Below, one piece after another: positions 16,436 to 42,462 of a stretch of DNA of 64,000 nucleotides. The DNA is taken from NCBI GenBank assembly GCA_045612805.1, contig JAZKZR010000010.1, positions 195,136 through 259,135 of the forward strand, given 5' to 3'. Every line of letters begins with the position of its first letter. Position 1 is the stretch's first letter. Under the pieces are notes generated by a model. That model saw only the letters and a list, made by a program, of their open reading frames with translations. It did no database searches and was not told where the DNA came from. The translations under genes and the position numbers were made by a program. Source of the stretch: Candidatus Enterousia sp. (GTDB lineage Bacteria > Pseudomonadota > Alphaproteobacteria > Rs-D84).

Positions 16436-16461
16436 ATAACGGCAATCGCCGTTATTTTTTA
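16436..16461. terminator. Bidirectional terminator between the ACP gene and the convergent helicase gene
   Basis: aacggc-aatc-gccgtt hairpin followed by a run of six T. Confidence 0.5.
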
Positions 16462-19286: not shown

Positions 19287-19398
19287 TCCATCTTTGCCTT
19301 TGGGCGGGGATGTGATAGAGATTTCTCAATTATAATTGAAAAATCACCCACGCCGTCATCCGACGGCGTGTTTTATTCCCGTTACCCCGCTTTTTTTC

Positions 19399-19639: not shown

Positions 19640-19702
19640 CTATTTTTTCTTGCCTTAGATTTTGTATTTTTCTAAGATGAAAGTAAATGAAAGGGAGAAA
19701 TT
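19640..19702 (+). promoter_or_regulatory. Putative promoter and ribosome-binding site of the giant gene
   Basis: cttgcc...N17...taagat (sigma70-like), then AGGGAGA 7 nt before the ATG. Weak, read by eye only. Confidence 0.3.
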
Positions 19703-22700
19703 ATGAAGAAATTCGCTAAAATCCTTGGTTTTCTGGGCTTTTTTGTGACGGTCGCGACGGTCCAAATCGGCACCGCCTGGGCCGATGGACAATACTGTGG
19801 CTACGGATATGATGGATATTATGGTTTAGGCAGGGAACAGAGTGATTGTTATAAATGCGCTGAGGATTTCAACAACTATCCCAATAGTACAGGGGGGTAC
19901 AATTTTAGCGGAAATTTGTGTTACAGTGCATGTTCCGGCACATGTATAGATGCAAATTCTAGTTTTCAAAATGGTGGCACATATGGGATACCTGCTACAT
20001 CCACATTCTTCGTTTCTCGACTTAATAACGGAACACAAAATTCATTATTAAACATCAGTGGTCTTACGTGTAATAATATTGGAAACTATTGTGCCGAAGT
20101 GTTTGATTGTGGCAAGAATGCATGTTCGGCAAATTGGAAAACCATCAATTTTGTAGATCATAATAATACCCCACTAGGCACACTTTACATTGTGTACGGC
20201 ATGATATGGAGCACACAGCAAACGACACAATGTGACGATTGTGCCGGAAATTCGCTGAATTATGCTGTATTTTACCCGGTGTTTCAAACGCCGACGGCAC
20301 CAACCCGGGAAGGGTACACGTTTCTTGGATATTCTGATAGCCAAACAGGCGGTATCATTCGCATAGGGCCCGACCATAGTAATATGTACGGTAAATTAAA
20401 TTATAACAATGCAACGAGTATTAGTGGAATTAGTGGTAATACCATTACCCTTTATGCACGTTATGAAAACGCCGGGTGTGCCCAGAATTATTGGTATAAT
20501 AGCCAAACAGATGAGTGTATACCTTGTGCCGAAGGTTTCACAAGCCCTGGTGGATATGGCAACCAACATACATGCACCAAGAGTTGCTCAGAAACGTGTA
20601 CGCAAAGACACAATAGTACAGACGAATGTGCCGAAGGTGTGACAGGGTTTTATTCACCAATCGTTCCTATCACTGGGAAAGAATACGAGGATGATCAGGG
20701 ACATTGTTACGACAACAATAACATAGAAATATTAGCCCCAGATAACGATCTTACAGAAGCACACTGGTGTCAATGGAATTGTGATGGTTGCAAGGATGAG
20801 CAATGTTATACTTTTGTTGAGGGCGCATGTGAACCGAAAATTTGGAACGCTATGTACGATTGCGATGATGGTACCAATGTAATCACAGACACGAATTATC
20901 CAGAATCTTACGGTAATTACATTATTGCCGATTTTAGTTGTCAGGGTCAGAATGGACAAACCTTTATTGGTTGGACACTCGGGTCTGGGGGAATTGTATA
21001 TAATCATGATGATCCCGAACATGATGAACTTACATGGGGATGTGGTCATCAAACATTCAAACCTGTTTTTGAGGATACCTGCTATGAAGTTAGTTTTAAT
21101 GACGAGACGAATGGTGGGCACCCAAACAACCAAAATGGTACGCACGGGCCTTTCTATAAAAAATATAATGACACACAGTACAATTGGTATACCAATAGCA
21201 AATGTACTGAAAAGGTTAATGGTGGCAACCCAAGTGTGGCAAATAACCTGCCTTGGAAAGAACATGCGACATTTACCGGGTATTATGATGAAACCCAAAA
21301 CCCTGATTTAAAGATTTTTGCCGGTGATAATGATACGCCCCAAGGTGGGTTGACAAACGATGGGACAAGCTGGACAATTGATGGTAACACAGTATTGTAT
21401 GCACAGTATACTTGTGTTGAAGGTTATACTCCAGATGCCAATGGTGATTGTGTTGGTGACAAAATCGATGTAAAATATACCTGTGTTTCACCTGTTGATG
21501 GTGATGAACCAGAACAGCATACATTCAATGATGACGCAACTTATGGCACCGCGTACCCTGTTAAATATGTTGGAACGGGTAGTAATCACAATGTGCAATG
21601 CGCATTTACTGGGTATGAGTTAGACACTGATTATGTGTGGAAATTACAAGATTATAGTGGCAATCCAGACAATCCGAACGGTGAATATGGCCCAGGCGCA
21701 GACGCAGGCAACACATTGCTTTCCACTGATTGGCAATATATCACGACCACACCATTGACGGAAATAGAATTTATTTTGGACAAGAGTTTGTGGCATTTAA
21801 AAACATACAATGTTGAATATCGTTGCGGCGAAATCAAACCGGATGCCGATGTTTATACGGATTCCAGTGCTACATACGGCCAAACATATAACGTTGCCGG
21901 TCAATTTGATCCGATTGGTGGCAATGCTGTTACAGTTCAAGATTTCTTGGACAACAATTGTAAACCAAATGGCGGGTTTGGTGCATGGACATTCCAAAAC
22001 TGGACATTCACATGTGATGGGGCTGATTCGGGACCCTACGACACAAATGATCCAACGTTCGGCCCCTGGACATACGACAGTAACAATTGCTACTTTACCG
22101 CAAACTGGGCCCAGACAGATTTTGTGATTATATTGGATCAAAATGGTGGAACTGATGGCAATCCTTCTGACTATCTTTATACCAGGAAAAACATTGGTGT
22201 ATATCTTGATTCTGCAAGAACATTAAAAATGTTGCCGGATCACGAATCCAACGCCAACCCCCTAACACCACCACAAAAGACTATCAATATAACCATTTAT
22301 CCCGATTCGACACATGATGGCACTGGTGCATCGTTTACTTACAATGGTACAATATATGGTTACAATGGAGCTAACAATTATGCAAACATTGATGAGAATC
22401 TTGACTTTATGGGGTATTATCAAAACATTTTATCAAACCCCGAAAAATATATAGACCCATATGAAGGCAAGGGATATATCACCGGTGAAGGTATAGCCGC
22501 TGGAAAAACGTATGATGAAAATTATACCGTACCGCAAAGAACCTGGGTCGCGCATTGGGGAACGTATGAACTAACATTACCGTCAACGGCAACATGGAAC
22601 GGTCATGATTTCGACGGATGGGAATGTGTTGATGATGAAGACACTGTAGTATATTCGTGCGGGACAAACCAATCTTGTCAGGTAACAGTATCCGAAAACA

Positions 22701-25700
22701 TCACCTGTACTGCGCAATGGTCTGTTGCGTGCCGCAACGTGCTGTTTGATGATACGACAAATGGCGAACCGAGTTCCCCAACGAACGGTGGAAATTCTGG
22801 TCGTTTTTCCAAGGTCGCCGGTCAAGCGGGCTGGTACCAGGGTACCGAATGCGCGGGCAATTCATACACCCCCAGTGTAGCAGATAGAATTCCGACGAAA
22901 ACAAATGGACATTTTATTGGGTATAACACCGCGGTCGATGGAACAGGAAACGAGATATTCGATGAATTTGGTGTCGTAACAACATATGGCAATCAAACAT
23001 GGGCGCCCGTTGACACCCCAACCCTCTATGCACAATATGAATGTGATGCCCCGTATCATCTTGATACCAATCCTAATTCTGAAACTGCTGGTCAATGTGT
23101 GGCGTGCGCCCCCGGGACTTTCTATGATCCTAACGAGGCCAACCCGGCAAAACAGTGTAAGAATTGTAATCAATATATCAGTGATAATGGTGTTGCTGGG
23201 GCAGGGGCTTATACCTGGACCAGTAGGCCACCATATAACTGGAGTATTAAGCAATGTTACCGTACCTGTGGCAGTGGTGTTGGTATACAAGAAACATGTG
23301 CAGAGGTCCCCACGGTATCCGGACACAACGAAATGGAACAGTTTTTGGGCGATTGCGAAGGTTGCACGCCAACCGGCAAACAAATTTCGTTCTATGGTAA
23401 CGAATTTGCCACCGATCCGAACAACAGGGTCAACACCTGTGACGCCAACGTCGGTGCCATTAATTGTCCCCAGGGATTTTTGGCGGGTGGTGCATCTGGT
23501 GCTAATAAACTTATGGCGGCTGCGGTTGATTTTTACGAAGATCGCGATTTGAACGGAACTTATGAACCGAACGGAAAACGGTATATAGTCGGTAGGCGTA
23601 TTGCTACAAATGACGTTTACAAACTAGATACCGGCTTTGTTTGGAGCCAGGTTGTCGGCGATGCGCAACTAGAAGGGAATACAGAAGGAAATCCCGGTAC
23701 CATAAGCATCATATATCCGGCCACTTTGGCACCGACGGTCGCAGACCCGGAACATCATACGTTTGCCGGTTACGGTTATCCGGAAGATGCCCCATCGTCG
23801 CAGGTGTTTGTTGATAACAATTATAGTTTGACATCTGGATCTAATGGTAACGCAAGTTCAATAATTTCTTTTGCAAATGATCATAGTTATACAAACATGA
23901 GCCCGATTATAGGCAACAGCAGTTATACCCGCAACCTGTATGCACAATATACGGCGGCCGATTCTTATACCCTTACGTACCTTTGTAATGGTGTGGAAAC
24001 CCCGTCGACGGACCATCAAGTAACGGGTTTATATGTGGGAACACAATTTAACTTGATCACCCCAGATTGGTGCACCGGTTGCTATGAATTTACGGGTTGG
24101 TGGGATGGATCGCAAACTATCACCCCAGACCAATTCACAAACTTTACGTGGATTTACAATAGCGATAAGACCTTTATCGCGCGGTGTGCTGAATCAAAAG
24201 ATAAGTTCATAATCTATAATAAAATTCCGGTTGACGATGTTAATGAAGATGGAACCACAAACAATGGCAACACTTATGTACCTGCTGAGGACGGCACGCC
24301 TACAACATTTACCTGTGGTAGTGAAATAACATCAATCACTGGCCACCCACAACTTAAAAATTCTGATAACGTCGTTATTGGTACGGTTATTGAATGGTGT
24401 ACAGATTCTGATTTAGAAGAATGCGATTCGCCGCTAGAATTACAAAACAGCAACTGCAACGATAAAAACGTCTATGCCAAATGGGAATGCACGGATCCGC
24501 GGTATCATTTGAACGAAAACAAGGATGATTGTGTGGCATGTAACGCCGGCGAATATTGGGATGCCACTACTCAGAAATGTGAATCGTGCAGTGAGGCAAC
24601 GGGTGGAAACTTCCCATACAGTACACCGGGATTCAACTGGAGTGTTGATCAGTGTTATAATTACTGTAACACGAATTTAACCTGTGACGATGCATCTTTG
24701 AATGGTATATATGATGGCGAATATGCTAATTGTCAGTTTACAAAAATTGATAATACTAATAAACAAATAGAATTCTACGGGAACCATAGAACAAGTGTAA
24801 CCGCATGCAACGGTACGGATACTGTTCGATATTGTGCATACGGTTTCGCCGGATGTGGCACCCCGAATGCGTTAATTAAACCGGTGACCGTACAGGTTGA
24901 TTTTAAGAAAACTACCAATGATACTGTTGGTCAACGTTACATCTTTGGTTCGCGTAGTGGCAATGGCAATAATATCGATGTTAATCCATCCACTGCCAAG
25001 ATATGGAGCCAGATTGTTGGTCAAGGTCAGCAAGAACAAGTGTCGGGTGGCAATTACAGTTACACGCACATAATTTACCCAACATACACGGCTCCGGCGG
25101 CGAACCAGATTGGACAAGATTTCACTGGATATTATTATCCAGAGAACGATGGTACCCGGTATGTAGAATACGATCTTGGCTTAGATGCCACCAATGCACA
25201 AAGTGTGTTGCAAGATCAGTCTGGTAGTATTAGTGCGCCCCGCAGTTTATTTGCAAAATATTGTTCAAACGGTCAAGAATGGAACGGTTCTGCATGCATC
25301 GGGACAGACTATACTGTTAAATATATTTGCGGTGCCCACGGAACGGCTCCTGGTGAAATGACGAACACGGCGACATCTGGTCAATCTTATATGGTGGCGG
25401 CTTTGGAAGGCGGGGCAACCGCAACGTGCACAGCAAATACTGATACTGGTTATGTCCTTAAGATGAATAATAATAAACCTGTATGGAAATTTAACGGTAA
25501 CGATAGAGAATATTTTACTGGCGAAGTAATTAACCAGTGGAACTTTACTATACAAAGTCCAACATTCACCGCACAATATGACTGCGCCGCGGGATATACT
25601 TGGAACACGGATGGTACCGCCTGTGTTTCCATATCCGATATAGCATGTCCGGCGGAATTATCAGAGAATTCACATGCAAGTTTGGTCGGTGAGCCAAGCA

Positions 25701-28700
25701 TCAATGGCGATGGAAAATGTGTTTATACAATCCAGTGTGATTTGTGTCAAACATCTGGGGTATACGGTTGTTATACCCATGATCCTATTTCCAACGGCCA
25801 GTTCACAATAACCGACGACCAATATGATGCTGATGCCCTTGAGGGTGTGTCCTGTACCCCGGCTGATTTCTGCGTCACATTAGATAGTAACGGCGGCAAT
25901 GGCGGTATTGGAACATTGTGTGAAACATATGGCGAAGGGTGGCATAAATCTGGTTCAGAAGGTTTTATTGATTCTTTGGAATCCAGTGACCTACCAACAT
26001 GGTTAAACAACAGCCAGGTGTTTGCTGGTTATTGGACTTTGCAAAACGGCGGCAATATGGAAATTGATCCAGAAGGGGCAATTGTGGCAAACAATACCAT
26101 ACTGGAAGATAATAACCAAACATGGTACGCGCATTGGGGCGATGGTACCGGATACACGGTTACATTCGAATGCGATGGTGATACTCAGTGGACCGAAACT
26201 CTACTGGTGTACCCAACACAAGACATAGAGGTTCCACAAACACAATGTTTGCGCACTGGTTATACATTTACCAATTGGGTGGATACGCCCCATAGTGTCA
26301 CAATTCCTGCAAACAACCAAACATTCAATTGGACCGGCGAATTTAATTCTGTCCTAACCCCAGATTGGACGGCGAACACTTATAGTGTGACCTATAAATG
26401 CGGTGAAGACGATACCGGTGTCACGGATCCGACAGCGGCGGAATTCGACCATGATTACTATGTGCAACCGCATAACGATAATATTGTTCGTTGTGCCGAA
26501 CCAGAAGGCAAGGTATTTGTAAAATGGTCATTAAATACGACACCAGACGCAACCTTGATTGCAGAGGATCAAAATACCACATGGACATATGATATATCCA
26601 ACCCAACCTTTACCGCCCAATGGACGGACGGGTGTTATGAGGTAACTTTCAATAATGATCGGCACGGTGGGCAACCTATTATCAGTACGTTAAAATTTTA
26701 CAAACAAGGCACGAGATGGTACGCCAATACCGAGGCAAAGTGTGATGGCGATTCTATAAGTCCAAGTGTGGCAGGTATGTTACCGACCAAGGAACATGCA
26801 AGCTTTATCGGATATGACGATGAGGATGGAACAGACCAACGTATTTTTGATGGCAATGGTTATCCTACGTATGCCGCATCCAGTTGGACAATTACGAGGG
26901 CTACAGTTCTGTATGCACAATACGATTGTGATGCTGGTTATACATTAAGTGGAACAACGTGCGTCTTGGATTCTTCGAATTTCCACACGATAACCCTTGA
27001 CAAAAATGCCGGAGAATTTTATGGCGTAGCCAGTAATCCGAATGTTTTGTACACCATAGAGGGTACAGCCCAAGCTTACACTGATGAGGGACATAATGAT
27101 CCATTCTATAGTTTGAACGAGAATGGTTTCCCCCGCAAATATGCCAAAGTGACATTCCATTATTGCGATGGCACAAACAATTCTTGCGGTAACCCATCCA
27201 CACCTGATGAAACCAAAGATGCAGATTTCACATTTAATGGATTTTATGCCACAACGTCGGCCACAGGGGATCTGTATATAGCTCAGAACGGCTATATCAC
27301 TGGGTATGGAAACATTGCGGCGGGCGCGGCCACAAGCAATGAAACATGGTATGCAGCTTGGAACGGATACGGCACGCTGGATACATCTCGTTGGCCGGTT
27401 CCTGCCCAGATCCCCAATGGTTACGCTTTTGGCGGTTGGTATACGGAACCTAAGTGCGAGGGTACACTAATGTCATCTAGCACCCAATTTACCACCCCTG
27501 ACACCGACCTTTATGCCTGTTGGTCACAGAATGTATTCACCGTCACATACAATTGCGGCATTGGTACCGGCAGCGCTCAACCAGATACACAAAATCATCC
27601 GACCACTGGCAGTAACTATACTGTTTTACCGAACGGAACTGCAAACGGTGGGGTTGTGGATTGTAACTATACTGGCCAGGGTTTCGCCGGGTGGAAATTT
27701 AGTGAAAACACCGGTGTAAACACGTATAATGCTGGGGATACAATAACATGGCAGGCCGGTTATGGCAATGAGACCTTGACCGCCCAATACAGACGCTGTG
27801 AAACAAACGAAGTCCTTGTGAACGGCGTATGTTATCCGACGTGCAGTGACACAACTTGTACGGAACCAACGTCACAGAATTCACAGAGCCATTGCCCAAC
27901 GGATCGTATCCCACCGTATCCGCATGATGAAGTGGAATGTTCATATTCATGGGACAATATTTCGGGGTATTTGGATGGTGGCGTGTGTAAATATGCAAAT
28001 GGTGACAACCAAGGGCAACCGATAAACACGGGTGTTTGCCAAGAGAGTGTTGCATGTAACGATTCTGCCTATATCTGGAATTCGGACCCGAATGTGTGGG
28101 ACTGTGTGCCGAATACGAGTATCACTTACAATGTTCAATTCAAATGCAATGAGACAGACATTGCACCTATATCTGACTATAGTTTTAGTGTAAGTTATGG
28201 CGAGAGTATAACAGTCCCGTCAGATTCAGCTTGTCAAAGAACCGGGCATTCGTATAGCCAGTGGAAAGCCACACAATACAATAATCCCGCTACACTTCCT
28301 GCGCAGGGTACTACATATCAATATCCGTGGGAACAGACCCATGGTGAAACATTCATCGCAGATTGGACAAACAACCAATATAGGATGACATTGAATGCAA
28401 ACGGTGGAACACATAATGGTTCCGATCCTGTTACTGAATTGCTAGAGGTATTTGGTCAATATTTCTATAAGAACTCTGATATGAGTTCACCGATTGAATA
28501 CTTTACCACCAATCAATTACCAACAAATGGTACCCAACATTTCGCTGGTTACATGACGGATGGCGAAGAATCTAGAACAATGTATAATCCGATTAGTGGT
28601 AACTGGAGACTAGTTCAGCCAAACATAGCAGCTAACGAAACATGGTATGCGAAATGGAGTGTTTGTAATCCAGGTCAGTATTATTCGGATGGTCAATGCA

Positions 28701-31700: not shown

Positions 31701-34700
31701 ATTGCCAGGGATATTGTCAGACATCTGGATGTACAACGGGGCAAAATCATGTTATAGGGTGTGATTATATATCAGAATCATATACTGGGTTTATACATTG
31801 GCCGAATCCCATTAATGGTCAGTGTCCAAATTCTAATGGTGTTGTTCCATCATGTGATTATTGTGTTCGTTGCGAGGATGGTTGGGTTCAGGATCCTAAT
31901 AATTGTAAGCAGTGTATAGAAGATGCTCATTTTATTGTTACGTTGAATCCGCATTTGGTAAATAATACCCAGGGAAGTTACAGTAGTCCAAGGGCACTAT
32001 ATACATGGCATGGCAAGGGTGTTTATTTGTATGAGGACTATAGCCAATATCTGATGAACGGAAACCAAAATCCGCTTGTCAGTAATCCACAGACCTACGC
32101 GACCGTAACTTTTAACTTGAATGGTGACGGGGCTTGGCTTGATTGGGAAAATCAGCGCTATACAGATCCCGTGGATATAGACGTTCCACTTACTTATCTT
32201 GGATTCTATAAATCAGAAACCGATTCAGATATGGTTATAAACACTAATCGGTATATAGAACCCGCGGGTACGCAGGCCGGTAAAACCGCCACAGCTAATT
32301 TGGAATGGCATGCGCATTGGCAACCACGGCAAATAGGAACGGTAACAGGTTCTCAGCTTCCGCAACCGTCGCGTCCAGGATTCAATTTTGTCGGATGGTT
32401 TAATACATCTGCGTCCAATGGTGGCACTCAAATATATGCGACGACGGCGGCCGCCCAGAATATGACCGTGTATGCACGTTGGGAAAAGGCAAAATATTTC
32501 GTGAATTTGGATAAAAATGGTGGTCAATGGGGTTCTGATCCTGTATATAAGTTATGGGAATTGTATGGTACCGGTTGGTCCACAGAAGAAACTGGCCCAT
32601 TTGAACGTGATTTGGTTTTGGGTGAAAGTGAGCGTCCATCATATGTGGACAACAGCAAGGTGTTCAATGGTTATTGGACCGCCAGGAACAACGGCACCCA
32701 ACAGATCCGTGCCGATGGTTCCGTTGTCGATACGACCGCAACCGTACTTACCGTGAATAATACTACATGGTATGCACAATACGTCGATAATACAAATAAA
32801 TATACTATCACATTCAGGTGCAGCGAGAATGCATCCCCGATTCGCACATATCGTGTAAGTGGTGGTGAAAGTATAACTGTTCCGGCCAAATCAGAATGTC
32901 CGAACCCAGGTTATTCATTCACGAAATGGATGGGAAATCAAGGCACAAATTTCAATGCACGAGATAGTGAATATACAGTAATATGGGAAAGTTTTTCTGA
33001 TGCAGATTTTGTTCCAAATTGGAATAATGGGGATGTGTATCATGTGACATTACTTCAAAATGATGCGGATGCACCTGGTGAAGTACAGAATTTGTATGAA
33101 AAATACGCCAGTTGGTGGGCATTGGATCAGAATAATCAGTACCCGATGACATCGTTAAGTGGCGATCAATTGCCGACCAAAACAGGTTACGATTTCGCTG
33201 GGTTTAAAACCAGAATTGGGGGATATACAAGGGGTGATTTTGACTCTGAAAGTAATGTATGGGTACCACAGTCAAATAGAGAAATAACCAATGACGAAGA
33301 ATGGGTTCCTAAGTGGACACAATGCAAACCGTATTGGTATTATGATAACGTTCAAAAGATATGCAAGGAATGTCCAGCCCCATACACCAATAACGAACAT
33401 CCAGAATCGTTGGCGGATTGCTATGATGGTCGGTGCGAGCTGCGCTGTATTGAAAGCGCGATCGAATGTCCGACCGATCCAAATGCGATTGAATTTGAAT
33501 ACAGCAATGACGTATATTCGGGAACAAATTATTATCAAAATCATTGTGTGTTGGATATATGGGTACAACAGGGCGCTCAACAAGAAGTGATACCAAGTTG
33601 TGAATGCACAATAAAAACCTGTAAACCTGGCTATCACCCTGTCAATGGTGACTGTGTTGAGTATGTCAAGACGGATATTGTGCTTAGTCCAAACGGGGGT
33701 GCGTGGGCTTCAAATGTCCCGTACGAATATAGGTACCTTTACACAATCGAAAGTACCGGTGTGTATCGTAATTCTGCAAGGACAGAAGAAATGACACCCG
33801 ACAATAACATGCCTTTACATGCAATTCCGTCGAATGGCGTGTCGATAACACTTGATGCCAATGATGGAAGCGTGACATGGGGTGGCGGAACAGGTGAGAT
33901 TCTAAATCGTAACGCTGCATTTGAATTCCTCGGGTTCTATAATTCTCAAGCCCCGGGTTTTGCGGCACCGTATATACTGCCACGGGAAATAAACGGTGAA
34001 ACATATGCCTTTATCACCACTGGTGGGCAATCAGCTGGTATGGGATACACGACAACACCACATACATGGTATGCACAATGGAATCGGTCGGTTACATTAC
34101 CCACGCCGGAACGCCAGAATTATACGTTCGTTGGGTGGACGTATAACGGGGAGTTGATATCTAATCCTTGGACGGTGCCTGGGAACACCACGAACGTAAC
34201 CTTGATTGCACGATGGACCAAGAATAATGGCACCATTGTGGCATACAAGTGTGACGATGGTGATGGTGGTATTGGTGGCACTGGTTATGATACGCTACAT
34301 CCGGCATATTTTGGTGAAAATTATAATGTTTTGCCAAACGGAATTGTAAACGGGGGTGTTGTGAATTGTTCAAAGCCGGCCAATATAACCCTGGGAAGAA
34401 GATATCATGAATTTGAAGATTGGGTATTCAGTGATGATTATGCGCATTATGATCCAGGTGAAATCAATTGGACTTTTAACGTGGATAACCCGACATTTAC
34501 TGCGAACTATGAAGAATGTCCAAATGGGTGGTATTTTGATGGTTCGTGCAAACAGTGCCCGACTGGTTATACCAGTTCTGATATAGATGCAGATAGTGCA
34601 ACCAAGTGTTATAAAACGTGCGATGTTCCATGTACACGACCGACGTCACAGTGTCCTATGAATGAAGAGGGGGTTCTTACATGCACTTATCCTAATAACA

Positions 34701-37700
34701 CATATCCGCTTGGTAAACAATATAGTGGCAGTGATGATTGCGTATATGATGGAACCGCGCCTGCTTGCGAACCGTTCACAATCATGTGCAAACCTGATTA
34801 TACGCCAGATTACTATCTTAGCACGGATACCGGAACACATTGTACAAAATTGGATCAATATGAAATTACATTGGATCAGAATGGTGGTACGGGTGGACAA
34901 GATAAAATCTATACGATTTATAATACCGGCGTATACCGTGACGCAGGACGGATTTATAGTATGACACAATACCCATTGTTAAATTTGCCATCAAAGTCCG
35001 TTAACGTAACATTTAATTCTTGTGATAATAATGATCCAAATTGTGAAGGTGCAACTGTTTGGGAAAGACCGGTTGATCTGGAGTTCAAAGGATATTATCA
35101 AACTGCATCGAACAATTCGCAATACATATATGCAACTGGATTAATCACATCAACAGGTCTGGCCGAAGGTAAGTCATATACGGACAATAATCAAACTTGG
35201 TACGCTCAATGGAATTCTGGTACAGTTGACTCCGATAAATGGCCTTTGCCGCCAACACGTCCGAGTGCGTGCGCAACATACAGTTTCCATGATTGGTATA
35301 CCGAAATAAATGGTGGGACACCGGTTTCGTATAACACACAGGTATCCGAAGATGTGACATGGTACGCCCATTGGTGCGAAAGTTGCCCGACCAGGGCAAT
35401 AGACCACGGTTCGTGCACTGCGCAAAATTGCAAGGCCGAATTTAAGTGTGACGACGGGTACGATTGGAATTCGGGTAGTTGCACTTGCACCCCAACAACC
35501 GGATTGACCCTAACATATCAACCAAATGGTGGCGTTGCGCGCAACGGTGTTGAACTTGTGCAACAAATGACATTTGAACAATCATTTACAACACTTGGCG
35601 GAAATGATATTACCATGGCGGGCAATATAAATTGTAAATGGGATACGGTATCTGGTGGTCAATTCCCATTATTAGATCACGAATATACCTATAATCAAAA
35701 TGGTAATACCGTGTTAAAAGCCCATTGGGCAGCATGCACGTGCGAGGCGGGCAATGGTGTTCAATCTTGTTCCACAAACGTTATAGATAATACCTGTGTT
35801 CCAACCGTTACGTGTCAGGGCGGATATATCCCCGTTACACCATACGGAATCAGTGAGGAATGTGGTAATAAGGTCACTGTTAGCTGCACTAAATGCCCGG
35901 CCGGAACATATCAAAATGGTAACCAATGTTCACCATGCGATGGAAACACTGTGTCCGCGGCGGGCGCAACCCAGTGCGAACCGTGTGACCCCGGTTATAC
36001 CGCCAATGCGGAACATACACAATGCGTGGGTAACCCGATCACAATCAATTGGGATGAAAACGGCGGAAATGCAATACCTGATGGTTCTTGTGTATATGGT
36101 CAAACGTTTACGTTGGCGAATGCACCGGAGCACAGCAACAGGGCTATGCAATTCCTTGGGTGGAAATTGTTTACGGGTGATAGTACTTATCCGGCCGGGA
36201 CAAACGTAATGTGTACATATGACAATGTCGGTGTTTACAGTGAAACAAGTACCAAAATCCAGGCACAATGGAACGAATGCCAGTGTTCGGATCAATTGAA
36301 TCCGCATGTGGCGTGGTGTCAGGCATGGTTTGCAGACGGCGAATGTAAGTATATGAATGGATGTGATGCCGGATACGAACCTGATCCGTTAACGGTGTAT
36401 ACCCCGGCTGCGGTATGTAAACCGAAAAATTACAATATAACATATAACTGTGGTGATGGAATTGGCATCCCAGAATATCTGACAGACAGTGCCACATTCA
36501 ATGAAAATTATACTGTAAAGGGACGTGGCACCTGTCAAATGACTGGGTTCAACTTTGCGGGTTGGAAACTCAGTGCTAACAGCCAAACTTATCAACCAGG
36601 ATATAGGTTTGAACCGTGGAATTTCACACAACAAAATCCAACCTTTACCGCACAATATAGTCAATGCGCGGCTGGCGAGGTATGGGTAGATGGCGCATGC
36701 GAACCATGTACTTGCTCACAGGATAATTGGAGTTCTGGTGTCGCATCATGTACGGCAAGTCCATCGTCGATTAGCACCTGTTCTGCGGTTGTCACATGTG
36801 AAACAGGTTATAATAATCCGCAAGGGAATTGCGATGGTGCGACATGTTCGGCCCAGTGTGACCAGATTCAATCCAATGCCATTTATGAATGTGGAATTGG
36901 TGCAACGGGAACACCGCCGGCCACGGAAACGATGAACTATGGTGCGACACACACGGTCAAAGGCCAGACAAGTTGTGCCAAATCGGGTTATACCTTTAAC
37001 GGTTGGAATTTTACTGGGACAAATAAAAATTATAACCCCGGCGCAACGGTCCAATGGAATTATGGAACGGATCAAACCTTTACGGGGAATTGGTGCGAAA
37101 ATTGCGGCAATGTTGCAAACGGAACTTGTTCACTGAATGCAACCTTCGCTGGTTCTTGTTCGTATGATTGTTCTTGTGAACCTGGATATAGACTGGTTGG
37201 TGGTGTATGTACCGCGCACCCGGTATGCGAACCTGATGATTCATTAACAATCACATATCAGCCAAATGGTGGTATGAATAATGGCGTCCTTGGGCAACCG
37301 GTGATACAAAATGTCACATATGGTGCCGGGTTTATAACCAAACCGGGAACCATATTTACCAAGGAAAACAGTATTATCACCGCATGGGATCATGTCGAAG
37401 GTGGCAATTATCCAGAATTGAATCGTTGGTATGTGTATGATACCGATATTGACACCATATTGAGTGCACATTGGGAACAGTGCACATGCACTGCGGGCAA
37501 CGGCGTGTCATCTTGTACAACAAGTTCTACAAGTGAAAATGCTTGCGCTTGTGCTGGTGAATGTGCTGCTCGTTACATAAACGGCGGTTGTAGTTGCAAC
37601 GGAACAAGTACCTGCACGCAAACTTGTACGGAATGTCCGGCCGGGTACATATCAAATGCAGATCAAACAGAATGTGTTATTTGTCCAGAAAACACGTATC

Positions 37701-40069
37701 AATCGGGCAATACTTGTGAACAGTGTCCAACTGGTTACACATCGCCGGCGGGTTCAACGTCGGTTGAAGATTGTTATAATAATCCGATATCATATACGGT
37801 GCATTATTCTTCAAACAATGGTTTGGATCAGACGGAAACTCAACCTGTTGTGTATGGGACAACGTTTACAACCCTTGGCGGAACGACATTCACGTATGAT
37901 AACCACATTATGACCCGTTGGAATAAAATAAGTGGTGGTGACTATACAGAATTGTCGCACCCATACGAATATGGTGTCCAAGAAGATACGTTCCTAAAGG
38001 CACAATGGGCAGAGTGTACATGTGCTACGGGCAATGGTGTGTCGTCTTGTACAACAAGTTCTACAAGTGAAAATGCTTGCGCTTGCACGGGCGAATGCGC
38101 CGCGGGTTATGTAAAGGGTGAGTGTTCTTGCTCTGGAAATACATGCACGCAATCTTGCACAAAGTGCGCGGATAATCAGGTTGAAATAAACGGTGTTTGT
38201 GTTGATTGCTCTTGTTCGGCCGATGGTGATGGGGTTGTTTCGGGATGCGGATTTGTATCAAACGAAAATAACGTTTGCCATTGGGGTCCAACAACTTGCG
38301 GTACAGGATACGGTAATCCTGGGGATCTTAGCTGCGATGATTCTGTACATAATAATAACTGTAGAGCAATATGCAGCCAGATTCAGTCCAATGCAATCTA
38401 TGAATGTGGGACTGGAATGGGTATTCCACCGGTTAGTGAACTTGTTGATTATGGCACACAGTATATCATCAAGGCCAATGCCGCGGTTTATGGGTGCCAT
38501 CGTGACAATTCCAGATTTGCGGGTTGGGAATTCGACGGAACCCAGAAACCATACTGGCCGGGCGATACGGTTACATGGAATTATACAGAAGATAGGCACT
38601 TCCGCGCGGTGTATTGCAATGAGTGCTTGACGGGCGATCATTGTACTTTGGACATACCTAATCCTGGTGAATGTGTGGTGACCTGTCATACAGGATATGA
38701 ATGGGATGCCAACCTGAAAAAGTGCGTGGCGAAAACATATGAAAACGGTATCACATACAAACCAAATGGTGGAACGCCAAATCAGAATTATACGCAATCT
38801 GTGATATATGATGCACCGTTCACAACGCTTGATTGGAACACGGAACATTATACCAAGGCGCACCATATCTTAAAACGTTGGGATGTTGAATCCGGTGGTG
38901 CGGGAACATTTAATGGTGGTTATGCCGCCCTTGGTACGGAATACACATATCATACGGACGGCGCAACATCGTTGTTGGCTGAATGGATAGAATGTGGTAT
39001 CAATGAAATATCATTGGATAATCAGTGTCAACAGTGCCGTTGTACCGATAATAACGCAGGTGTGACATCTTGTGAAACAAGTGCCACGAATAATGACACT
39101 TGCAGTTGTTCGGGCGAATGTGCCGCGGGGTACATAAACGCCGGTTGCAATTGCAACGGAACCAACTGCACACAATCTTGTACAAAGTGCGCAGATAACC
39201 AAGTTTCGGTAAACAATGCTTGTGAAAATTGCGTGTGCGAGAAAAACATTGATGGCATAGAGGGCATCATTTCAGGTTGCGGATTTGTGTCAAACAATGG
39301 CAATACATGTAACTGGGATCCGACAACTTGCAGATTGGGGTATGGTTATCCGGATTTGACCTGTACGGAAACCGAACATAACAATAATTGCACCGCATCG
39401 TGCACGATATGCCCGGCCGGCACATATGGCGATAATGGCATTGAATGCAAACTGTGTCCAGAAGGCAAAACATCTTTGGCCGGCGCAACATCAATAAGGG
39501 AATGCTTTATTGATCCAAACAGTTGCGCGCCGGATGAACACATCGAACACGGCGAATGTGTAAGCAATAAGCGTGCATGTTCTATACCAGATGCAACCAG
39601 TGCGGTTCGTATATGGAATCCGGCAATCGGAACATACGGCCCATGCACGGTTGAGGTTGATGGCTGTAATTCGGGTTATCATGTTTCCGGCAACGCGTGT
39701 GTCCGGGATACCTGCACCGTTGCACACGGCAGTGCCGAAAGCGAATATAGCGGTGGCCGATGGGAATGCTTTGTGACAAAGTGTGATCCGGGTTATGAAC
39801 CAAGTTCGGATTACAAGTCCTGTGTTGAATGTGCGAATCGTTATGTTGATGGCGATGTCGCGGTCAGCAGTTATGTATCCGAATGCGAAATCGCCGCATG
39901 TATGTACCAGGGTCAAAAGTATGCGTTGCAAAATGGCGAATGCGTCCCGATTTGTACCGCGGATAGGTTTACCCGTGAAGATCCGAGCAATCCAACTGGT
40001 ACAATACAATGGGATGAACGCACCAAGAAATGTATCCGAACCTGTAACCCGGGATACAAGATGTGGTAA
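19703..40069 (+). CDS. Giant (6788 aa) secreted Cys-rich mosaic protein: about 40 Listeria-Bacteroides (Flg_new/InlB B-repeat-like) units, ephrin-receptor-like (GCC2_GCC3-type) units and EGF-like Cys knots. Putative adhesin or surface fibril
   Basis: Single open frame of 20367 nt with the ribosome-binding site AGGGAGA. Signal peptide MKKFAKILGFLGFFVTVATVQIGTAWA. Recurring ...GYTFxGW...(T/L)(W/L/F)YAQ(W/Y) units. Motifs such as CPAGTYQNGNQCSPCDGNTVSAAGATQCEPC. Several hundred Cys. No LPXTG, RTX, autotransporter barrel or T9SS C-terminal domain is recognisable. Confidence 0.9.
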   Translation: MKKFAKILGFLGFFVTVATVQIGTAWADGQYCGYGYDGYYGLGREQSDCYKCAEDFNNYPNSTGGYNFSGNLCYSACSGTCIDANSSFQNGGTYGIPATSTFFVSRLNNGTQNSLLNISGLTCNNIGNYCAEVFDCGKNACSANWKTINFVDHNNTPLGTLYIVYGMIWSTQQTTQCDDCAGNSLNYAVFYPVFQTPTAPTREGYTFLGYSDSQTGGIIRIGPDHSNMYGKLNYNNATSISGISGNTITLYARYENAGCAQNYWYNSQTDECIPCAEGFTSPGGYGNQHTCTKSCSETCTQRHNSTDECAEGVTGFYSPIVPITGKEYEDDQGHCYDNNNIEILAPDNDLTEAHWCQWNCDGCKDEQCYTFVEGACEPKIWNAMYDCDDGTNVITDTNYPESYGNYIIADFSCQGQNGQTFIGWTLGSGGIVYNHDDPEHDELTWGCGHQTFKPVFEDTCYEVSFNDETNGGHPNNQNGTHGPFYKKYNDTQYNWYTNSKCTEKVNGGNPSVANNLPWKEHATFTGYYDETQNPDLKIFAGDNDTPQGGLTNDGTSWTIDGNTVLYAQYTCVEGYTPDANGDCVGDKIDVKYTCVSPVDGDEPEQHTFNDDATYGTAYPVKYVGTGSNHNVQCAFTGYELDTDYVWKLQDYSGNPDNPNGEYGPGADAGNTLLSTDWQYITTTPLTEIEFILDKSLWHLKTYNVEYRCGEIKPDADVYTDSSATYGQTYNVAGQFDPIGGNAVTVQDFLDNNCKPNGGFGAWTFQNWTFTCDGADSGPYDTNDPTFGPWTYDSNNCYFTANWAQTDFVIILDQNGGTDGNPSDYLYTRKNIGVYLDSARTLKMLPDHESNANPLTPPQKTINITIYPDSTHDGTGASFTYNGTIYGYNGANNYANIDENLDFMGYYQNILSNPEKYIDPYEGKGYITGEGIAAGKTYDENYTVPQRTWVAHWGTYELTLPSTATWNGHDFDGWECVDDEDTVVYSCGTNQSCQVTVSENITCTAQWSVACRNVLFDDTTNGEPSSPTNGGNSGRFSKVAGQAGWYQGTECAGNSYTPSVADRIPTKTNGHFIGYNTAVDGTGNEIFDEFGVVTTYGNQTWAPVDTPTLYAQYECDAPYHLDTNPNSETAGQCVACAPGTFYDPNEANPAKQCKNCNQYISDNGVAGAGAYTWTSRPPYNWSIKQCYRTCGSGVGIQETCAEVPTVSGHNEMEQFLGDCEGCTPTGKQISFYGNEFATDPNNRVNTCDANVGAINCPQGFLAGGASGANKLMAAAVDFYEDRDLNGTYEPNGKRYIVGRRIATNDVYKLDTGFVWSQVVGDAQLEGNTEGNPGTISIIYPATLAPTVADPEHHTFAGYGYPEDAPSSQVFVDNNYSLTSGSNGNASSIISFANDHSYTNMSPIIGNSSYTRNLYAQYTAADSYTLTYLCNGVETPSTDHQVTGLYVGTQFNLITPDWCTGCYEFTGWWDGSQTITPDQFTNFTWIYNSDKTFIARCAESKDKFIIYNKIPVDDVNEDGTTNNGNTYVPAEDGTPTTFTCGSEITSITGHPQLKNSDNVVIGTVIEWCTDSDLEECDSPLELQNSNCNDKNVYAKWECTDPRYHLNENKDDCVACNAGEYWDATTQKCESCSEATGGNFPYSTPGFNWSVDQCYNYCNTNLTCDDASLNGIYDGEYANCQFTKIDNTNKQIEFYGNHRTSVTACNGTDTVRYCAYGFAGCGTPNALIKPVTVQVDFKKTTNDTVGQRYIFGSRSGNGNNIDVNPSTAKIWSQIVGQGQQEQVSGGNYSYTHIIYPTYTAPAANQIGQDFTGYYYPENDGTRYVEYDLGLDATNAQSVLQDQSGSISAPRSLFAKYCSNGQEWNGSACIGTDYTVKYICGAHGTAPGEMTNTATSGQSYMVAALEGGATATCTANTDTGYVLKMNNNKPVWKFNGNDREYFTGEVINQWNFTIQSPTFTAQYDCAAGYTWNTDGTACVSISDIACPAELSENSHASLVGEPSINGDGKCVYTIQCDLCQTSGVYGCYTHDPISNGQFTITDDQYDADALEGVSCTPADFCVTLDSNGGNGGIGTLCETYGEGWHKSGSEGFIDSLESSDLPTWLNNSQVFAGYWTLQNGGNMEIDPEGAIVANNTILEDNNQTWYAHWGDGTGYTVTFECDGDTQWTETLLVYPTQDIEVPQTQCLRTGYTFTNWVDTPHSVTIPANNQTFNWTGEFNSVLTPDWTANTYSVTYKCGEDDTGVTDPTAAEFDHDYYVQPHNDNIVRCAEPEGKVFVKWSLNTTPDATLIAEDQNTTWTYDISNPTFTAQWTDGCYEVTFNNDRHGGQPIISTLKFYKQGTRWYANTEAKCDGDSISPSVAGMLPTKEHASFIGYDDEDGTDQRIFDGNGYPTYAASSWTITRATVLYAQYDCDAGYTLSGTTCVLDSSNFHTITLDKNAGEFYGVASNPNVLYTIEGTAQAYTDEGHNDPFYSLNENGFPRKYAKVTFHYCDGTNNSCGNPSTPDETKDADFTFNGFYATTSATGDLYIAQNGYITGYGNIAAGAATSNETWYAAWNGYGTLDTSRWPVPAQIPNGYAFGGWYTEPKCEGTLMSSSTQFTTPDTDLYACWSQNVFTVTYNCGIGTGSAQPDTQNHPTTGSNYTVLPNGTANGGVVDCNYTGQGFAGWKFSENTGVNTYNAGDTITWQAGYGNETLTAQYRRCETNEVLVNGVCYPTCSDTTCTEPTSQNSQSHCPTDRIPPYPHDEVECSYSWDNISGYLDGGVCKYANGDNQGQPINTGVCQESVACNDSAYIWNSDPNVWDCVPNTSITYNVQFKCNETDIAPISDYSFSVSYGESITVPSDSACQRTGHSYSQWKATQYNNPATLPAQGTTYQYPWEQTHGETFIADWTNNQYRMTLNANGGTHNGSDPVTELLEVFGQYFYKNSDMSSPIEYFTTNQLPTNGTQHFAGYMTDGEESRTMYNPISGNWRLVQPNIAANETWYAKWSVCNPGQYYSDGQCNDCPTSHPNSDPTTATSMNDCYYNCVTCTQYCPDDEEGVNDCYDYSSAGLPQNGHANYPGNTCVANPGQEQNCNYKVSCESGYHPTEDQKHCIGDTYTITLNSHRETSGYGQYYGNDSSPANLLARHGENGGVWYDANNQMVVGDALTSNPSKYANVTLNGNGGEIYWNNSWTEHNVSTTAAFEFQGFFRNQTGADNPYINNYGKLTTDGESAARTYIGNQTWHAQWTHACITLPNAQRTGYNFTGWVFGSAIGGTFAGNAGSTVCSNNGMPQMADITITATWDNGANYSILYDDNTRPLHLGLNANTICSPTSYQYGQGASIGCNLSSYASLDTHVVFKGWCLDATTNNCYDTTPTYYTIPNNATGNYTFYAWWECERGYDLSNGVCVPNASELCPAQLPSNSHATLATDVTPNPSINQNGDCVYTVQCNSCINENSAYDCYVYSSGNINSINTNGRFTITGAQGTAGQNVLNNVRCEPATYTAVYRCGDGTPTSPYYDTDHIITYNGSYTVLPNGSDGVVTCSKDGEMFNHWTFNLNSGIQYIGGESINPWRYHGSTVPTFMAQYGQCPEDEVIVDGECKKECIVPCTWQNYPANPAPCPNPPYPAGTTCHYIAGTNPAYGYRPNPSSRLCLDIDTGEQVEAQTCNVDPTQDPTCPPHYHWNSGTFSCDPDVYTVTLDPNRESYQNNTIVPGSNNVNELKEKWEYGWSKDGGYQFATDSLILNTNTEVPYWTDGTKVFDGYWTTPSGGYRMVQANGSVSQNGYQLLPATTITSDTTWYARYVDNPGPFTVTFRCDQDGAILNTQNPSFGDYIDVLAAPQSACTNHPGETFNQWRIVANGMLIPDWYNGTSGMYPWQLHEGSQIVPDWRPVYKVTLDKGATDAVNGNVTSLWDAVGIGWYTNSGLTNGVDSLSDSDLPTRSNYTFAGYVDSVSGNQRGQFGSNNTWVLPETTDLTSNETWRAEWSRCPDYNYYENNQCKECDSNYHQNPHPVTHEDCYTNCQGYCQTSGCTTGQNHVIGCDYISESYTGFIHWPNPINGQCPNSNGVVPSCDYCVRCEDGWVQDPNNCKQCIEDAHFIVTLNPHLVNNTQGSYSSPRALYTWHGKGVYLYEDYSQYLMNGNQNPLVSNPQTYATVTFNLNGDGAWLDWENQRYTDPVDIDVPLTYLGFYKSETDSDMVINTNRYIEPAGTQAGKTATANLEWHAHWQPRQIGTVTGSQLPQPSRPGFNFVGWFNTSASNGGTQIYATTAAAQNMTVYARWEKAKYFVNLDKNGGQWGSDPVYKLWELYGTGWSTEETGPFERDLVLGESERPSYVDNSKVFNGYWTARNNGTQQIRADGSVVDTTATVLTVNNTTWYAQYVDNTNKYTITFRCSENASPIRTYRVSGGESITVPAKSECPNPGYSFTKWMGNQGTNFNARDSEYTVIWESFSDADFVPNWNNGDVYHVTLLQNDADAPGEVQNLYEKYASWWALDQNNQYPMTSLSGDQLPTKTGYDFAGFKTRIGGYTRGDFDSESNVWVPQSNREITNDEEWVPKWTQCKPYWYYDNVQKICKECPAPYTNNEHPESLADCYDGRCELRCIESAIECPTDPNAIEFEYSNDVYSGTNYYQNHCVLDIWVQQGAQQEVIPSCECTIKTCKPGYHPVNGDCVEYVKTDIVLSPNGGAWASNVPYEYRYLYTIESTGVYRNSARTEEMTPDNNMPLHAIPSNGVSITLDANDGSVTWGGGTGEILNRNAAFEFLGFYNSQAPGFAAPYILPREINGETYAFITTGGQSAGMGYTTTPHTWYAQWNRSVTLPTPERQNYTFVGWTYNGELISNPWTVPGNTTNVTLIARWTKNNGTIVAYKCDDGDGGIGGTGYDTLHPAYFGENYNVLPNGIVNGGVVNCSKPANITLGRRYHEFEDWVFSDDYAHYDPGEINWTFNVDNPTFTANYEECPNGWYFDGSCKQCPTGYTSSDIDADSATKCYKTCDVPCTRPTSQCPMNEEGVLTCTYPNNTYPLGKQYSGSDDCVYDGTAPACEPFTIMCKPDYTPDYYLSTDTGTHCTKLDQYEITLDQNGGTGGQDKIYTIYNTGVYRDAGRIYSMTQYPLLNLPSKSVNVTFNSCDNNDPNCEGATVWERPVDLEFKGYYQTASNNSQYIYATGLITSTGLAEGKSYTDNNQTWYAQWNSGTVDSDKWPLPPTRPSACATYSFHDWYTEINGGTPVSYNTQVSEDVTWYAHWCESCPTRAIDHGSCTAQNCKAEFKCDDGYDWNSGSCTCTPTTGLTLTYQPNGGVARNGVELVQQMTFEQSFTTLGGNDITMAGNINCKWDTVSGGQFPLLDHEYTYNQNGNTVLKAHWAACTCEAGNGVQSCSTNVIDNTCVPTVTCQGGYIPVTPYGISEECGNKVTVSCTKCPAGTYQNGNQCSPCDGNTVSAAGATQCEPCDPGYTANAEHTQCVGNPITINWDENGGNAIPDGSCVYGQTFTLANAPEHSNRAMQFLGWKLFTGDSTYPAGTNVMCTYDNVGVYSETSTKIQAQWNECQCSDQLNPHVAWCQAWFADGECKYMNGCDAGYEPDPLTVYTPAAVCKPKNYNITYNCGDGIGIPEYLTDSATFNENYTVKGRGTCQMTGFNFAGWKLSANSQTYQPGYRFEPWNFTQQNPTFTAQYSQCAAGEVWVDGACEPCTCSQDNWSSGVASCTASPSSISTCSAVVTCETGYNNPQGNCDGATCSAQCDQIQSNAIYECGIGATGTPPATETMNYGATHTVKGQTSCAKSGYTFNGWNFTGTNKNYNPGATVQWNYGTDQTFTGNWCENCGNVANGTCSLNATFAGSCSYDCSCEPGYRLVGGVCTAHPVCEPDDSLTITYQPNGGMNNGVLGQPVIQNVTYGAGFITKPGTIFTKENSIITAWDHVEGGNYPELNRWYVYDTDIDTILSAHWEQCTCTAGNGVSSCTTSSTSENACACAGECAARYINGGCSCNGTSTCTQTCTECPAGYISNADQTECVICPENTYQSGNTCEQCPTGYTSPAGSTSVEDCYNNPISYTVHYSSNNGLDQTETQPVVYGTTFTTLGGTTFTYDNHIMTRWNKISGGDYTELSHPYEYGVQEDTFLKAQWAECTCATGNGVSSCTTSSTSENACACTGECAAGYVKGECSCSGNTCTQSCTKCADNQVEINGVCVDCSCSADGDGVVSGCGFVSNENNVCHWGPTTCGTGYGNPGDLSCDDSVHNNNCRAICSQIQSNAIYECGTGMGIPPVSELVDYGTQYIIKANAAVYGCHRDNSRFAGWEFDGTQKPYWPGDTVTWNYTEDRHFRAVYCNECLTGDHCTLDIPNPGECVVTCHTGYEWDANLKKCVAKTYENGITYKPNGGTPNQNYTQSVIYDAPFTTLDWNTEHYTKAHHILKRWDVESGGAGTFNGGYAALGTEYTYHTDGATSLLAEWIECGINEISLDNQCQQCRCTDNNAGVTSCETSATNNDTCSCSGECAAGYINAGCNCNGTNCTQSCTKCADNQVSVNNACENCVCEKNIDGIEGIISGCGFVSNNGNTCNWDPTTCRLGYGYPDLTCTETEHNNNCTASCTICPAGTYGDNGIECKLCPEGKTSLAGATSIRECFIDPNSCAPDEHIEHGECVSNKRACSIPDATSAVRIWNPAIGTYGPCTVEVDGCNSGYHVSGNACVRDTCTVAHGSAESEYSGGRWECFVTKCDPGYEPSSDYKSCVECANRYVDGDVAVSSYVSECEIAACMYQGQKYALQNGECVPICTADRFTREDPSNPTGTIQWDERTKKCIRTCNPGYKMW
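23030..25260 (+). repeat. Internal duplication of a roughly 260-300-aa super-module within the giant gene
   Basis: YECDAPYHLDTNPNSETAGQCVACAPGTFYDP...LYAQYT (about 23030-23940) parallels ECTDPRYHLNENKDDCVACNAGEYWD...LFAKYC (about 24480-25260), with the same domain order. Confidence 0.6.
35500..39520 (+). repeat. C-terminal tandem array of roughly 180-aa modules (B-repeat unit plus a CTCxxGNGVSSCTTSSTSENACAC...TQSCTxC Cys-rich unit), with a 41-nt identical DNA tract shared between copies
   Basis: At least five modules. The stretch tcttgtacaacaagttctacaagtgaaaatgcttgcgcttg at about 37510 is identical to the one at about 38047. The corresponding protein segments are near-identical. Confidence 0.65.
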
Positions 40070-40081
40070 GGATTATAACGC

Positions 40082-42461: not shown

Positions 42462-42462
42462 A

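Follow-up and report, generated by a model that had tools for sequence, protein, structure and literature searches.

A giant Cys-rich Flg_new repeat protein with a family-defining C-terminal domain, a candidate surface fibre of a small-genome alphaproteobacterium

Fibrillar adhesins, as delineated by Monzon et al., are recognised by their size, a stalk of repeats, an adhesive domain and an anchor. Flg_new is labelled a stalk domain in a figure legend of 10.1101/2021.12.07.471604, Flg_new proteins have been read as gut-specific adhesin-like proteins (PMC9723798), and giant proteins derived from the gut carry Listeria-Bacteroides repeats (10.1101/2023.11.21.568195). Our study concerns a single gene in a window of 64,000 nucleotides (the whole stretch of DNA analysed; deposited as Candidatus Enterousia sp., assembly GCA_045612805.1, contig JAZKZR010000010.1). 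The gene (19703..40069 of the window, + strand, 6788 codons plus stop) encodes a Sec-targeted, cysteine (Cys)-rich product of 6788 amino acids (aa), hereafter the giant protein. We read it, with a probability of about 55%, as a giant, fast-evolving cell-surface fibre or fibrillar adhesin of a genome-reduced anaerobic gut or rumen alphaproteobacterium. Its length and its 44 Flg_new-like units agree with the size and stalk repeats of fibrillar adhesins, and its C-terminal domain is a candidate anchor by position and conservation only.

Compared with described Flg_new-stalk adhesins, which include the InlB B-repeat type and proteins of gut methanogens and gut Firmicutes, the giant protein belongs to a diderm alphaproteobacterium, has no LPXTG, GW or PGF-CTERM anchor and no known adhesive head, adds interleaved Cys-rich modules, and is far longer than most members. 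The Cys spacing of these modules is the same as in eukaryotic Cys modules (PF07699, the TNFR-like repeats of ELAPOR1, the Cys-rich domains (CRDs) of TNFRs and the EGF arrays of Pfs25/Pvs25), but identity to them is low and the signalling context is missing. Giant surface proteins of Omnitrophota and gut Clostridia (the latter with Listeria-Bacteroides repeats; West-Roberts et al., 10.1101/2023.11.21.568195), from bacteria of small genome or cell size that are predatory or dependent on partners, are likewise very long secreted repeat proteins. Those of Omnitrophota measure 30-85 kaa versus 6.8 kaa here, and they differ in phylum, in domain mix (Cys-rich in our case) and with respect to the conserved terminus. 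The variant-specific surface proteins (VSPs) of Giardia and ciliate surface antigens are likewise Cys-rich, CxxC-bearing and fast-diversifying in the anaerobic gut lumen, which is a functional analogy only: VSPs end in a transmembrane helix and a CRGKA tail, whereas the giant protein has no hydrophobic segment at its C-terminus. Giant adhesin-like repeat proteins as such are well known. The novel features are the family-defining C-terminal domain, the mosaic of Flg_new units and Cys modules in a sub-megabase diderm, and the extreme divergence between near-identical genomes.

The giant gene is real. The first-pass annotation, which had been made from the letters of the window, described an uninterrupted 20.4-kb gene for 6788 aa filling one third of the window. 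In our own translation the frame starts with ATG, has zero internal stops and runs exactly from 19703 to 40069, or 31.8% of the window. Its GC content of 0.41-0.47 is like that of its flanks, and a database entry for precisely this 6788-aa protein derives from an NCBI contig of 329,866 bp. It is very improbable that the frame is an assembly artefact, in which collapsed repeats or a mis-join created a false long open reading frame (ORF). Such an artefact could be suspected in a source that presumably is a metagenome-assembled genome (MAG), the more so as the gene is repetitive at the protein level and in a related contig (L001) a scaffold gap interrupts it. According to a self-comparison the entire protein is modular, but its modules are related at only 25-60% identity and are thus too diverged for collapse. 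At the DNA level, the best direct repeat within the gene (139 nt) reaches 79% identity, Tandem Repeats Finder reported no tandem repeats, and near-identical repeats or cassettes were found nowhere in the gene. Collapse or mis-joining of repeats is therefore unlikely, and a random frame of 20 kb free of stops is practically impossible. Collinear orthologs of 5970 aa (P0016) and 6302 aa (P0028) also speak against an artefact. The former follows the giant protein over nearly its full length with 39-62% identity and was found with identical sequence in at least three independent metagenome assemblies, each with the same Mla operon downstream. In five related genomes the frame is open through all 10.5 kb available upstream of the C-terminal domain. 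With diverged repeats, an independently assembled ortholog and the protein on record, the chimera that the first-pass annotation had warned of is excluded as far as computation allows. In L001 the break is a run of Ns, and a split gene was rejected there.

The last 195 residues (aa 6594-6788; 39482..40066, + strand) contain 20 Cys, end in ...CIRTCNPGYKMW, are better conserved than any other part of the giant protein and were recognised as a conserved C-terminal domain by alignment and profile search. Homologs of the last 989 aa all share the same ending. We aligned ten proteins over their last 195-200 aa (the window protein is the first sequence, and the profile has 194 positions) and obtained 51 invariant columns. 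These comprise 16 of the 20 Cys of the window protein, the motif CEIAxCMYQGxKYxL and the end C-x-R-T-C-x-P-G-Y-x-x-W/Y; the domain almost always finishes with ...C-x-R-x-C-x-x-G-Y/F-x-x-W. A search of 1.84 billion cluster representatives with the profile gave 773 clusters for a threshold of E<=1e-3, of which 271 also passed E<=1e-30. In the best 150 of the 773 clusters the match runs, almost without exception, through to the final residue, and complete family members carry N-terminal signal peptides. Lengths of up to 6302 aa were found among the matches listed, and the window protein is longer than any of those.

A Pfam scan of the domain gave no match above the cut-off (cEGF, 21.6 bits), NCBIfam gave none at all, and no sequence relative was found in the PDB. 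A remote-homology search of the last ~200 aa for a secretion or anchoring domain, as proposed in the first-pass annotation, thus yielded the conserved 195-aa domain with its 773 clusters but no known secretion or anchoring family. The AlphaFold2 (AF2) model of the domain has a predicted local distance difference test (pLDDT) value of 67, with values <50 at residues 122-167, and consists of short EGF-like hairpins, not of a barrel. A fold search with this pLDDT-67 model returned the EGF arrays of Pvs25/Pfs25 (E 1.5e-4) at a TM score of ~0.2. At these values an assignment to the Pvs25/Pfs25 fold was rejected, and the hits were taken only as an indication of EGF-like hairpins.

The first half of the domain corresponds to a Cys sub-repeat of ~45 aa, C..NG.G.Q.....Y..C....C..GY....G.C, for which Pfam has no model. 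As the sub-repeat makes only this first half, the last ~80 residues are specific to the family. The same sub-repeat occurs in 8-15 tandem copies in two unrelated large proteins (P0012 and P0013), one with RCC1 repeats and the other with an M64-peptidase-like region. On sequence grounds, the C-terminal domain defines a large, so far undescribed protein family, and the giant protein is not a one-off. We found no paper describing this family, and the passages of the Enterousia/Rs-D84 literature at hand are silent on it. The view of the first-pass annotation that the combination is undescribed agrees with this literature result, whereas the protein itself is one of a family of 773 clusters. Absent from both Pfam and NCBIfam, the domain merits a family model in annotation.

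The body of the protein (20132..38995, + strand) is composed of 44 Flg_new-like beta-grasp units and Cys-rich linkers. Hidden Markov models (HMMs) of the units were built iteratively from the giant protein itself and overlaps between hits were then resolved. From 25 raw hits of type A and 23 of type B, 44 non-overlapping units remained, namely 21 of type A (~80 aa) and 23 of type B (50-150 aa). The estimate of about 40 units in the first-pass annotation was therefore right in substance. The proposed repeat logic GYTFxGW holds in the form of diverged units detectable by HMM, but the strict motif GY.F.GW has just 3 occurrences. The Pfam check that had been suggested came out positive in both halves of the protein, since Flg_new (PF09479) scored 64.2 bits in the C-terminal and 28.6 bits in the N-terminal half against a cut-off of 27. 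In NCBIfam, TIGR02543 (List_Bact_rpt) scored 36 bits against a cut-off of 20.95; this match lies at the best single Pfam Flg_new stretch (aa 4217-4258; 32351..32476, + strand). When the units were scanned singly, Flg_new was found at E<=0.01 in 12 of the 44 and Flg_new_2 at the same threshold in 2.

The best PDB sequence match of the type B profile was the InlB B-repeat (E 0.0022), and the type A profile matched the same entry with E 0.051. A profile-profile comparison between the two types was weak (E 0.007, probability 5.5%), so that a common origin rests on the separate matches of each to Flg_new or to the InlB B-repeat. For modelling, a block of one type A unit and one Cys-rich linker was used (aa 5847-6029; 37241..37789, + strand), and the Flg_new-like units are predicted to adopt the beta-grasp fold of the InlB B-repeat. 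With sequence and predicted fold in agreement, the giant protein genuinely belongs to the Flg_new repeat superfamily.

Most Cys residues reside between the units. The 22 linkers of at least 35 aa hold 256 of the 339 Cys within 2647 aa, which amounts to ~10% Cys versus 5% for the whole protein. One of them matches Ephrin_rec_like (PF07699) at aa 5981-6024 (37643..37774, + strand; 33.1 bits against a cut-off of 23.1, E 4.7e-8), and TNFR_ELAPOR1_6th overlaps this match on the same residues with 24.7 bits. A second linker reached 20 bits for PF07699 and stayed below the cut-off. The PF07699 match arises only when the linkers are scanned alone; the Pfam scan of the whole protein gave none, and for the majority of the 22 linkers neither Pfam nor NCBIfam returned a family. 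The mosaic of repeats and Cys modules proposed in the first-pass annotation was thus right in substance. Its ephrin-receptor/GCC2_GCC3 assignment stands for one linker, while 21 of the 22 fall below the PF07699 cut-off, and the ephrin-receptor label appears secure for one module only.

In fold comparisons the modelled Cys-rich part gave hits to the Cys-rich domain of EphA2, TNFR-type CRDs (CD40, 4-1BB) and the Cys-rich domain of CaSR. The linker profile matched ELAPOR1 in the PDB (E 2e-4), and the best eukaryotic protein match was a ctenophore PCSK5-like protein (41% over ~60 aa, E 1.8e-7). Judged by these similarities, the Cys modules appear related to the extracellular Cys-rich modules of eukaryotes. 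All work on PF07699 that we located concerns eukaryotes. Two further regions gave no Pfam or NCBIfam family. The first is the N-terminal Cys-rich tip (aa 28-143; 19784..20131, + strand), the most divergent part of the protein. The second is a composite module of ~300 aa found by self-alignment in two copies that are 29-34% identical to each other (aa 1116-1419, 23048..23959; aa 1590-1856, 24470..25270; both + strand). Its layout is a Cys-rich segment, ...ISFYGNE..., ...WSQVVG... and a long Flg_new-like end, and its motifs are also visible in P0015, P0016, P0021, P0028 and P0036.

Inspection by eye of the N-terminus MKKFAKILGFLGFFVTVATVQIGTAWA|DG revealed the n-h-c layout and AxA site of a Sec/SPase I signal, with cleavage after AWA (aa 1-27; 19703..19783, + strand). 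This signal peptide is the sole hydrophobic 19-mer in the giant protein (mean Kyte-Doolittle value 1.81), in line with the canonical Sec signal reported by the first-pass annotation. The mature product has ~741 kDa and an isoelectric point of 4.3; the protein is rich in T, G, N and Y and contains 339 Cys (5.0%), the several hundred expected. It is Sec-targeted, non-membrane and very long. As had been read from the sequence, it ends in ...CNPGYKMW (...TCNPGYKMW, with the polar end TKKCIRTCNPGYKMW), and the absence of known wall-anchor, type I (T1SS), type V (T5SS) or type IX (T9SS) secretion signals at this C-terminus was borne out by empty Pfam, NCBIfam and hydrophobicity scans.

Specifically, a T1SS route of the RTX type (LapA/SiiE) disagrees with the Sec signal, Pfam found no RTX or haemolysin-type repeats, and the neighbouring genes are of Mla/MCE and housekeeping type and none belongs to a T1SS. 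High Cys content is also atypical of T1SS RTX adhesins. For T5SS or two-partner secretion there was no Pfam hit and no TpsB-like neighbour, and the modelled C-terminal hairpins with their 20 Cys do not form a barrel. Neither Pfam nor NCBIfam matched the domain to a Por_Secre_tail-type T9SS signal; T9SS is a Bacteroidota-type system. Sorting by sortase, exosortase or rhombosortase finds no C-terminal hydrophobic segment, because the signal peptide is the only one and the C-terminus is polar. With the defining signals absent from its sequence, the giant protein falls outside every known class of anchored or secreted adhesins.

Comparison with relatives revealed that the N-terminal tip and the body are hypervariable. 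The closest genome hit was a MAG from goat omasum (RGIG2769, L007), whose flanking DNA is 94-95% identical to the window, with neighbouring genes at ~94.5%. In the giant protein, identity to this relative is 29-54% in aa 3261-5400, 70-93% in aa 5401-6200, 61% in aa 6201-6600 and 89% in the C-terminal domain. A mosaic of this kind would be expected if the protein is exposed and subject to diversifying selection or recombination. The orthologs P0016, P0028 and P0017 (5970, 6302 and 4198 aa) have the same signal peptide, at 63-89% identity; their identity to the window protein is as low as 22-27% in aa 28-300 but reaches 72-85% in the C-terminal domain. Between paralogs of the same genome it is 46-78% in this domain versus 32-58% in the body next to it. 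Protein length at the syntenic locus, defined by a PIF1-like helicase upstream, ranges from 1429 aa (L004) to 6788 aa in the window. The gradient from a conserved signal peptide and C-terminal domain to a divergent tip suggests a polarity of the molecule.

Instead of an adhesin, the same variability could mark a coat, protective or antigenically variable, in which a dense layer of Cys-rich, protease-resistant protein would shield the cell against phages, grazers, proteases or host IgA, much as VSPs do for Giardia and surface antigens for ciliates. This explanation is doubtful. It is attractive in view of the overall Cys content of 5% (~10% in linkers), the eukaryote-like Cys modules, the extreme mosaic divergence between near-identical genomes and the many genomes with 2-3 paralogs, some in tandem. 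However, a single fibre of ~6800 aa would be an odd building block for a coat, arrays of Flg_new are commonly interpreted as modules of stalks or adhesins, and no switching machinery was found, nor near-identical cassettes or repeats in the giant gene. A coat would also be compatible with adhesion.

The host lineage provides the context for a surface fibre. A two-piece (permuted) tmRNA of the alphaproteobacterial type at 12163-12519 (+ strand, 149 bits) identifies the host as an alphaproteobacterium, and the genomes of relatives are mostly <1 Mb, so that the earlier guess of a probable alphaproteobacterium with a small genome proved correct. When one genome per species was scanned with the C-terminal domain, 99 hits were confirmed. 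With few exceptions they lie in uncultured Alphaproteobacteria of the gut or rumen (hosts: goat, cattle, buffalo, yak, deer, sheep, chicken and termite), many of which are named Candidatus Enterousia. Several genomes contained 2-3 copies of the family, some in tandem. Judged by these relatives, the window probably belongs to order Rs-D84. Passages of PMC12306168 place Enterousia in this order of GTDB, give genome sizes of 0.67-1.6 Mb, mostly <1 Mb, and describe its members as lacking respiration and most biosynthesis and as presumed obligate partners (symbionts or parasites) of other cells. Based on relatives' genome sizes the giant gene would take up ~1.3-3% of the genome, or 2.3% at 0.9 Mb. 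Genes for a flavodoxin (618-1193), a rubrerythrin (9765-10391, - strand) and a 1-Cys peroxiredoxin-like protein (51757-52593, - strand) form an oxidative-stress set typical of anaerobes, consistent with an anaerobic rumen or gut host.

We propose the following model for a surface fibre. The Sec system would export the precursor, from which the 27-aa signal peptide is removed. In the mature protein, the ~44 Flg_new beta-grasp units would alternate with Cys-rich rods of the EGF, TNFR or ephrin-receptor-CRD type, stabilised by disulfides or metal, to give a protease-resistant stalk. The 195-aa C-terminal domain would be the cell-proximal module and serve in anchoring or export, recognised by or bound to an envelope component that all paralogs and orthologs have in common. 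The hypervariable N-terminal tip and the body would point outward and may bind partner or host surfaces, mucus or plant glycans. The logic of fibrillar adhesins fits this orientation, because the conserved end would meet an invariant component of the cell and the variable end would face selective agents or variable ligands. The data establish the gene itself, its domain make-up, its membership in the family, the gradient of conservation and the hypervariability; that the protein sits on the surface, which way it points, that it adheres and that the C-terminal domain anchors it are what we infer. The host lineage is thought to depend on partner cells, according to passages of PMC12306168. As its gene occupies ~2% of a small genome, sits at a conserved locus and diversifies far faster than its neighbours, the giant protein is the most obvious candidate for mediating dependence on other cells.

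Several points weigh against a surface fibre. The adhesin or host-interaction role favoured by the first-pass annotation can be derived from architecture and divergence, but Pfam and NCBIfam scans of the whole protein, the tip and the linkers found no known adhesive domain. The same collections returned no known anchor or outer-membrane translocation signal, and the outer membrane would be an obstacle to a Cys-rich Sec product of 741 kDa. The fold of the C-terminal domain, modelled with moderate confidence (pLDDT 67), says nothing on anchoring. Statistics over the neighbourhoods of 79 related loci revealed no conserved secretion or anchoring partner. Finally, exposed disulfides may not be stable under the strongly reducing conditions of the rumen.

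A bolder and tentative extension, which we consider rather unlikely, lets the C-terminal domain serve for both recognition and anchoring in an undescribed route by which diderm Rs-D84 bacteria bring giant Cys-rich Sec products to their outer surface, and makes the fibre a tether that holds an obligate epibiont or parasite to gut protists or bacteria, with Cys modules perhaps acquired from the host or mimicking it. What probability remains is left to functions outside the surface fibre and its rivals. The family in any case poses the question of how a diderm without a known outer-membrane export signal displays such a protein, for which the C-terminal domain offers a concrete handle. Rs-D84/Enterousia are widespread in ruminant, bird, termite and human guts, and their food and attachment targets are presented as a puzzle in the passages of PMC12306168.

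Downstream of the giant gene follows an Mla/MCE-type operon (40082..43068, + strand) with genes for MlaE, an ABC ATPase, an MCE/PqiB-like protein and a PqiC-like lipoprotein. The gap between the stop codon and the start of MlaE is 12 nt (within 40067-40084), and no terminator hairpin was evident in it by eye, no terminator scan having been run there. Because of this spacing, co-transcription with the MCE-type lipid transporter is likely in this clade. The operon directly follows the giant gene in 19 related loci and is absent downstream in about half of the loci, where an HI0933-like flavoprotein, a hydrolase, SecA or other housekeeping genes follow. On the other side, the conserved upstream neighbour at the main locus of the family is a PIF1-like helicase (16459..17730, - strand). 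The helicase cluster was found in 24 loci, in 17 of them upstream, within <=1 kb and on the opposite strand. Recurring neighbours in the 79 loci are confined to housekeeping genes (PIF1 helicase, TsaB, RimI-like, Mla/MCE, HI0933-like flavoprotein, hydrolase, SecA and DnaK).

This arrangement bears on a further rival, namely a periplasmic or envelope scaffold inside the outer membrane, cross-linked by disulfides like the Cys-rich outer membrane complex proteins of chlamydiae and maybe tied to the Mla/MCE operon. We regard it as improbable. A Sec signal in combination with no recognisable outer-membrane translocation signal would fit such a scaffold, as would the tight spacing with Mla/MCE genes in the 19 loci, but the other half of the family loci lack this operon downstream. 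Hypervariability between close relatives would also be unexpected for an internal part, and Flg_new units as well as EGF/TNFR-like modules are typically extracellular. A functional link between the giant protein and the Mla/MCE operon was set aside for the same gaps in its distribution, and the adjacency probably reflects genome compaction rather than function.

The region upstream of the giant gene (19650..19702, + strand) contains a strong Shine-Dalgarno sequence, AAAGGGAGAA (19690-19699), 3 nt upstream of the ATG. A -35/-10 pair, TTGCCT - 17 nt - TAAGAT (19650-19678, + strand), was read from the sequence and is a plausible promoter of the gene, although a consensus promoter scan of the upstream region gave nothing at its own threshold. 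A terminator-like hairpin (19349-19370) follows the tRNA-Met gene and precedes this putative promoter.

Further exported proteins are encoded in the window. A second secreted Cys-rich protein (56436-60125, + strand; 1229 aa, 56 Cys, signal peptide MKKLCATIAFTVYTLAVAFAGTAFA) has repeated C..C..GY / GTY modules, N-terminal repeats of the 'FRSTF' type and a Cys-free central region of ~200 aa. It matched no Pfam or NCBIfam family and is without the C-terminal domain of the giant protein. Another six ORFs, 244-414 aa long, begin with a signal-peptide-like stretch, in one case with a lipobox-like GAYGC: 3349-4395 (+), 4559-5803 (-), 50660-51634 (-), 60228-61166 (-), 61654-62520 (-) and 63246-63980 (-). 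None had a significant family match, with only a weak aRib hit for 61654-62520. The window is hence rich in exported proteins without an assigned family. In two loci of a more distant relative (L002, 18286-24545; L003, 17301-23560), the Mla operon is followed by a gene for a >2614-aa protein with an OspF/SpvC phosphothreonine-lyase domain. As this domain is known from effectors acting on eukaryotic MAP kinases, it hints that some members of the lineage interact with eukaryotic cells.

Among the remaining genes of the window, the ORF at 12951-14708 (+ strand) encodes a 585-aa Lon-like protein that has the substrate-binding, AAA+ and lid domains but lacks the S16 protease domain. Its counterparts in L002, L003 and L004, three distant relatives, are equally long. 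A split Lon pseudogene was rejected in favour of a conserved protease-less 585-aa Lon, which is followed by a TsaB-like ORF (14719-15255). A phage-type lysozyme (PF00959; 55346-55861, - strand, 171 aa) stands alone amid housekeeping genes.

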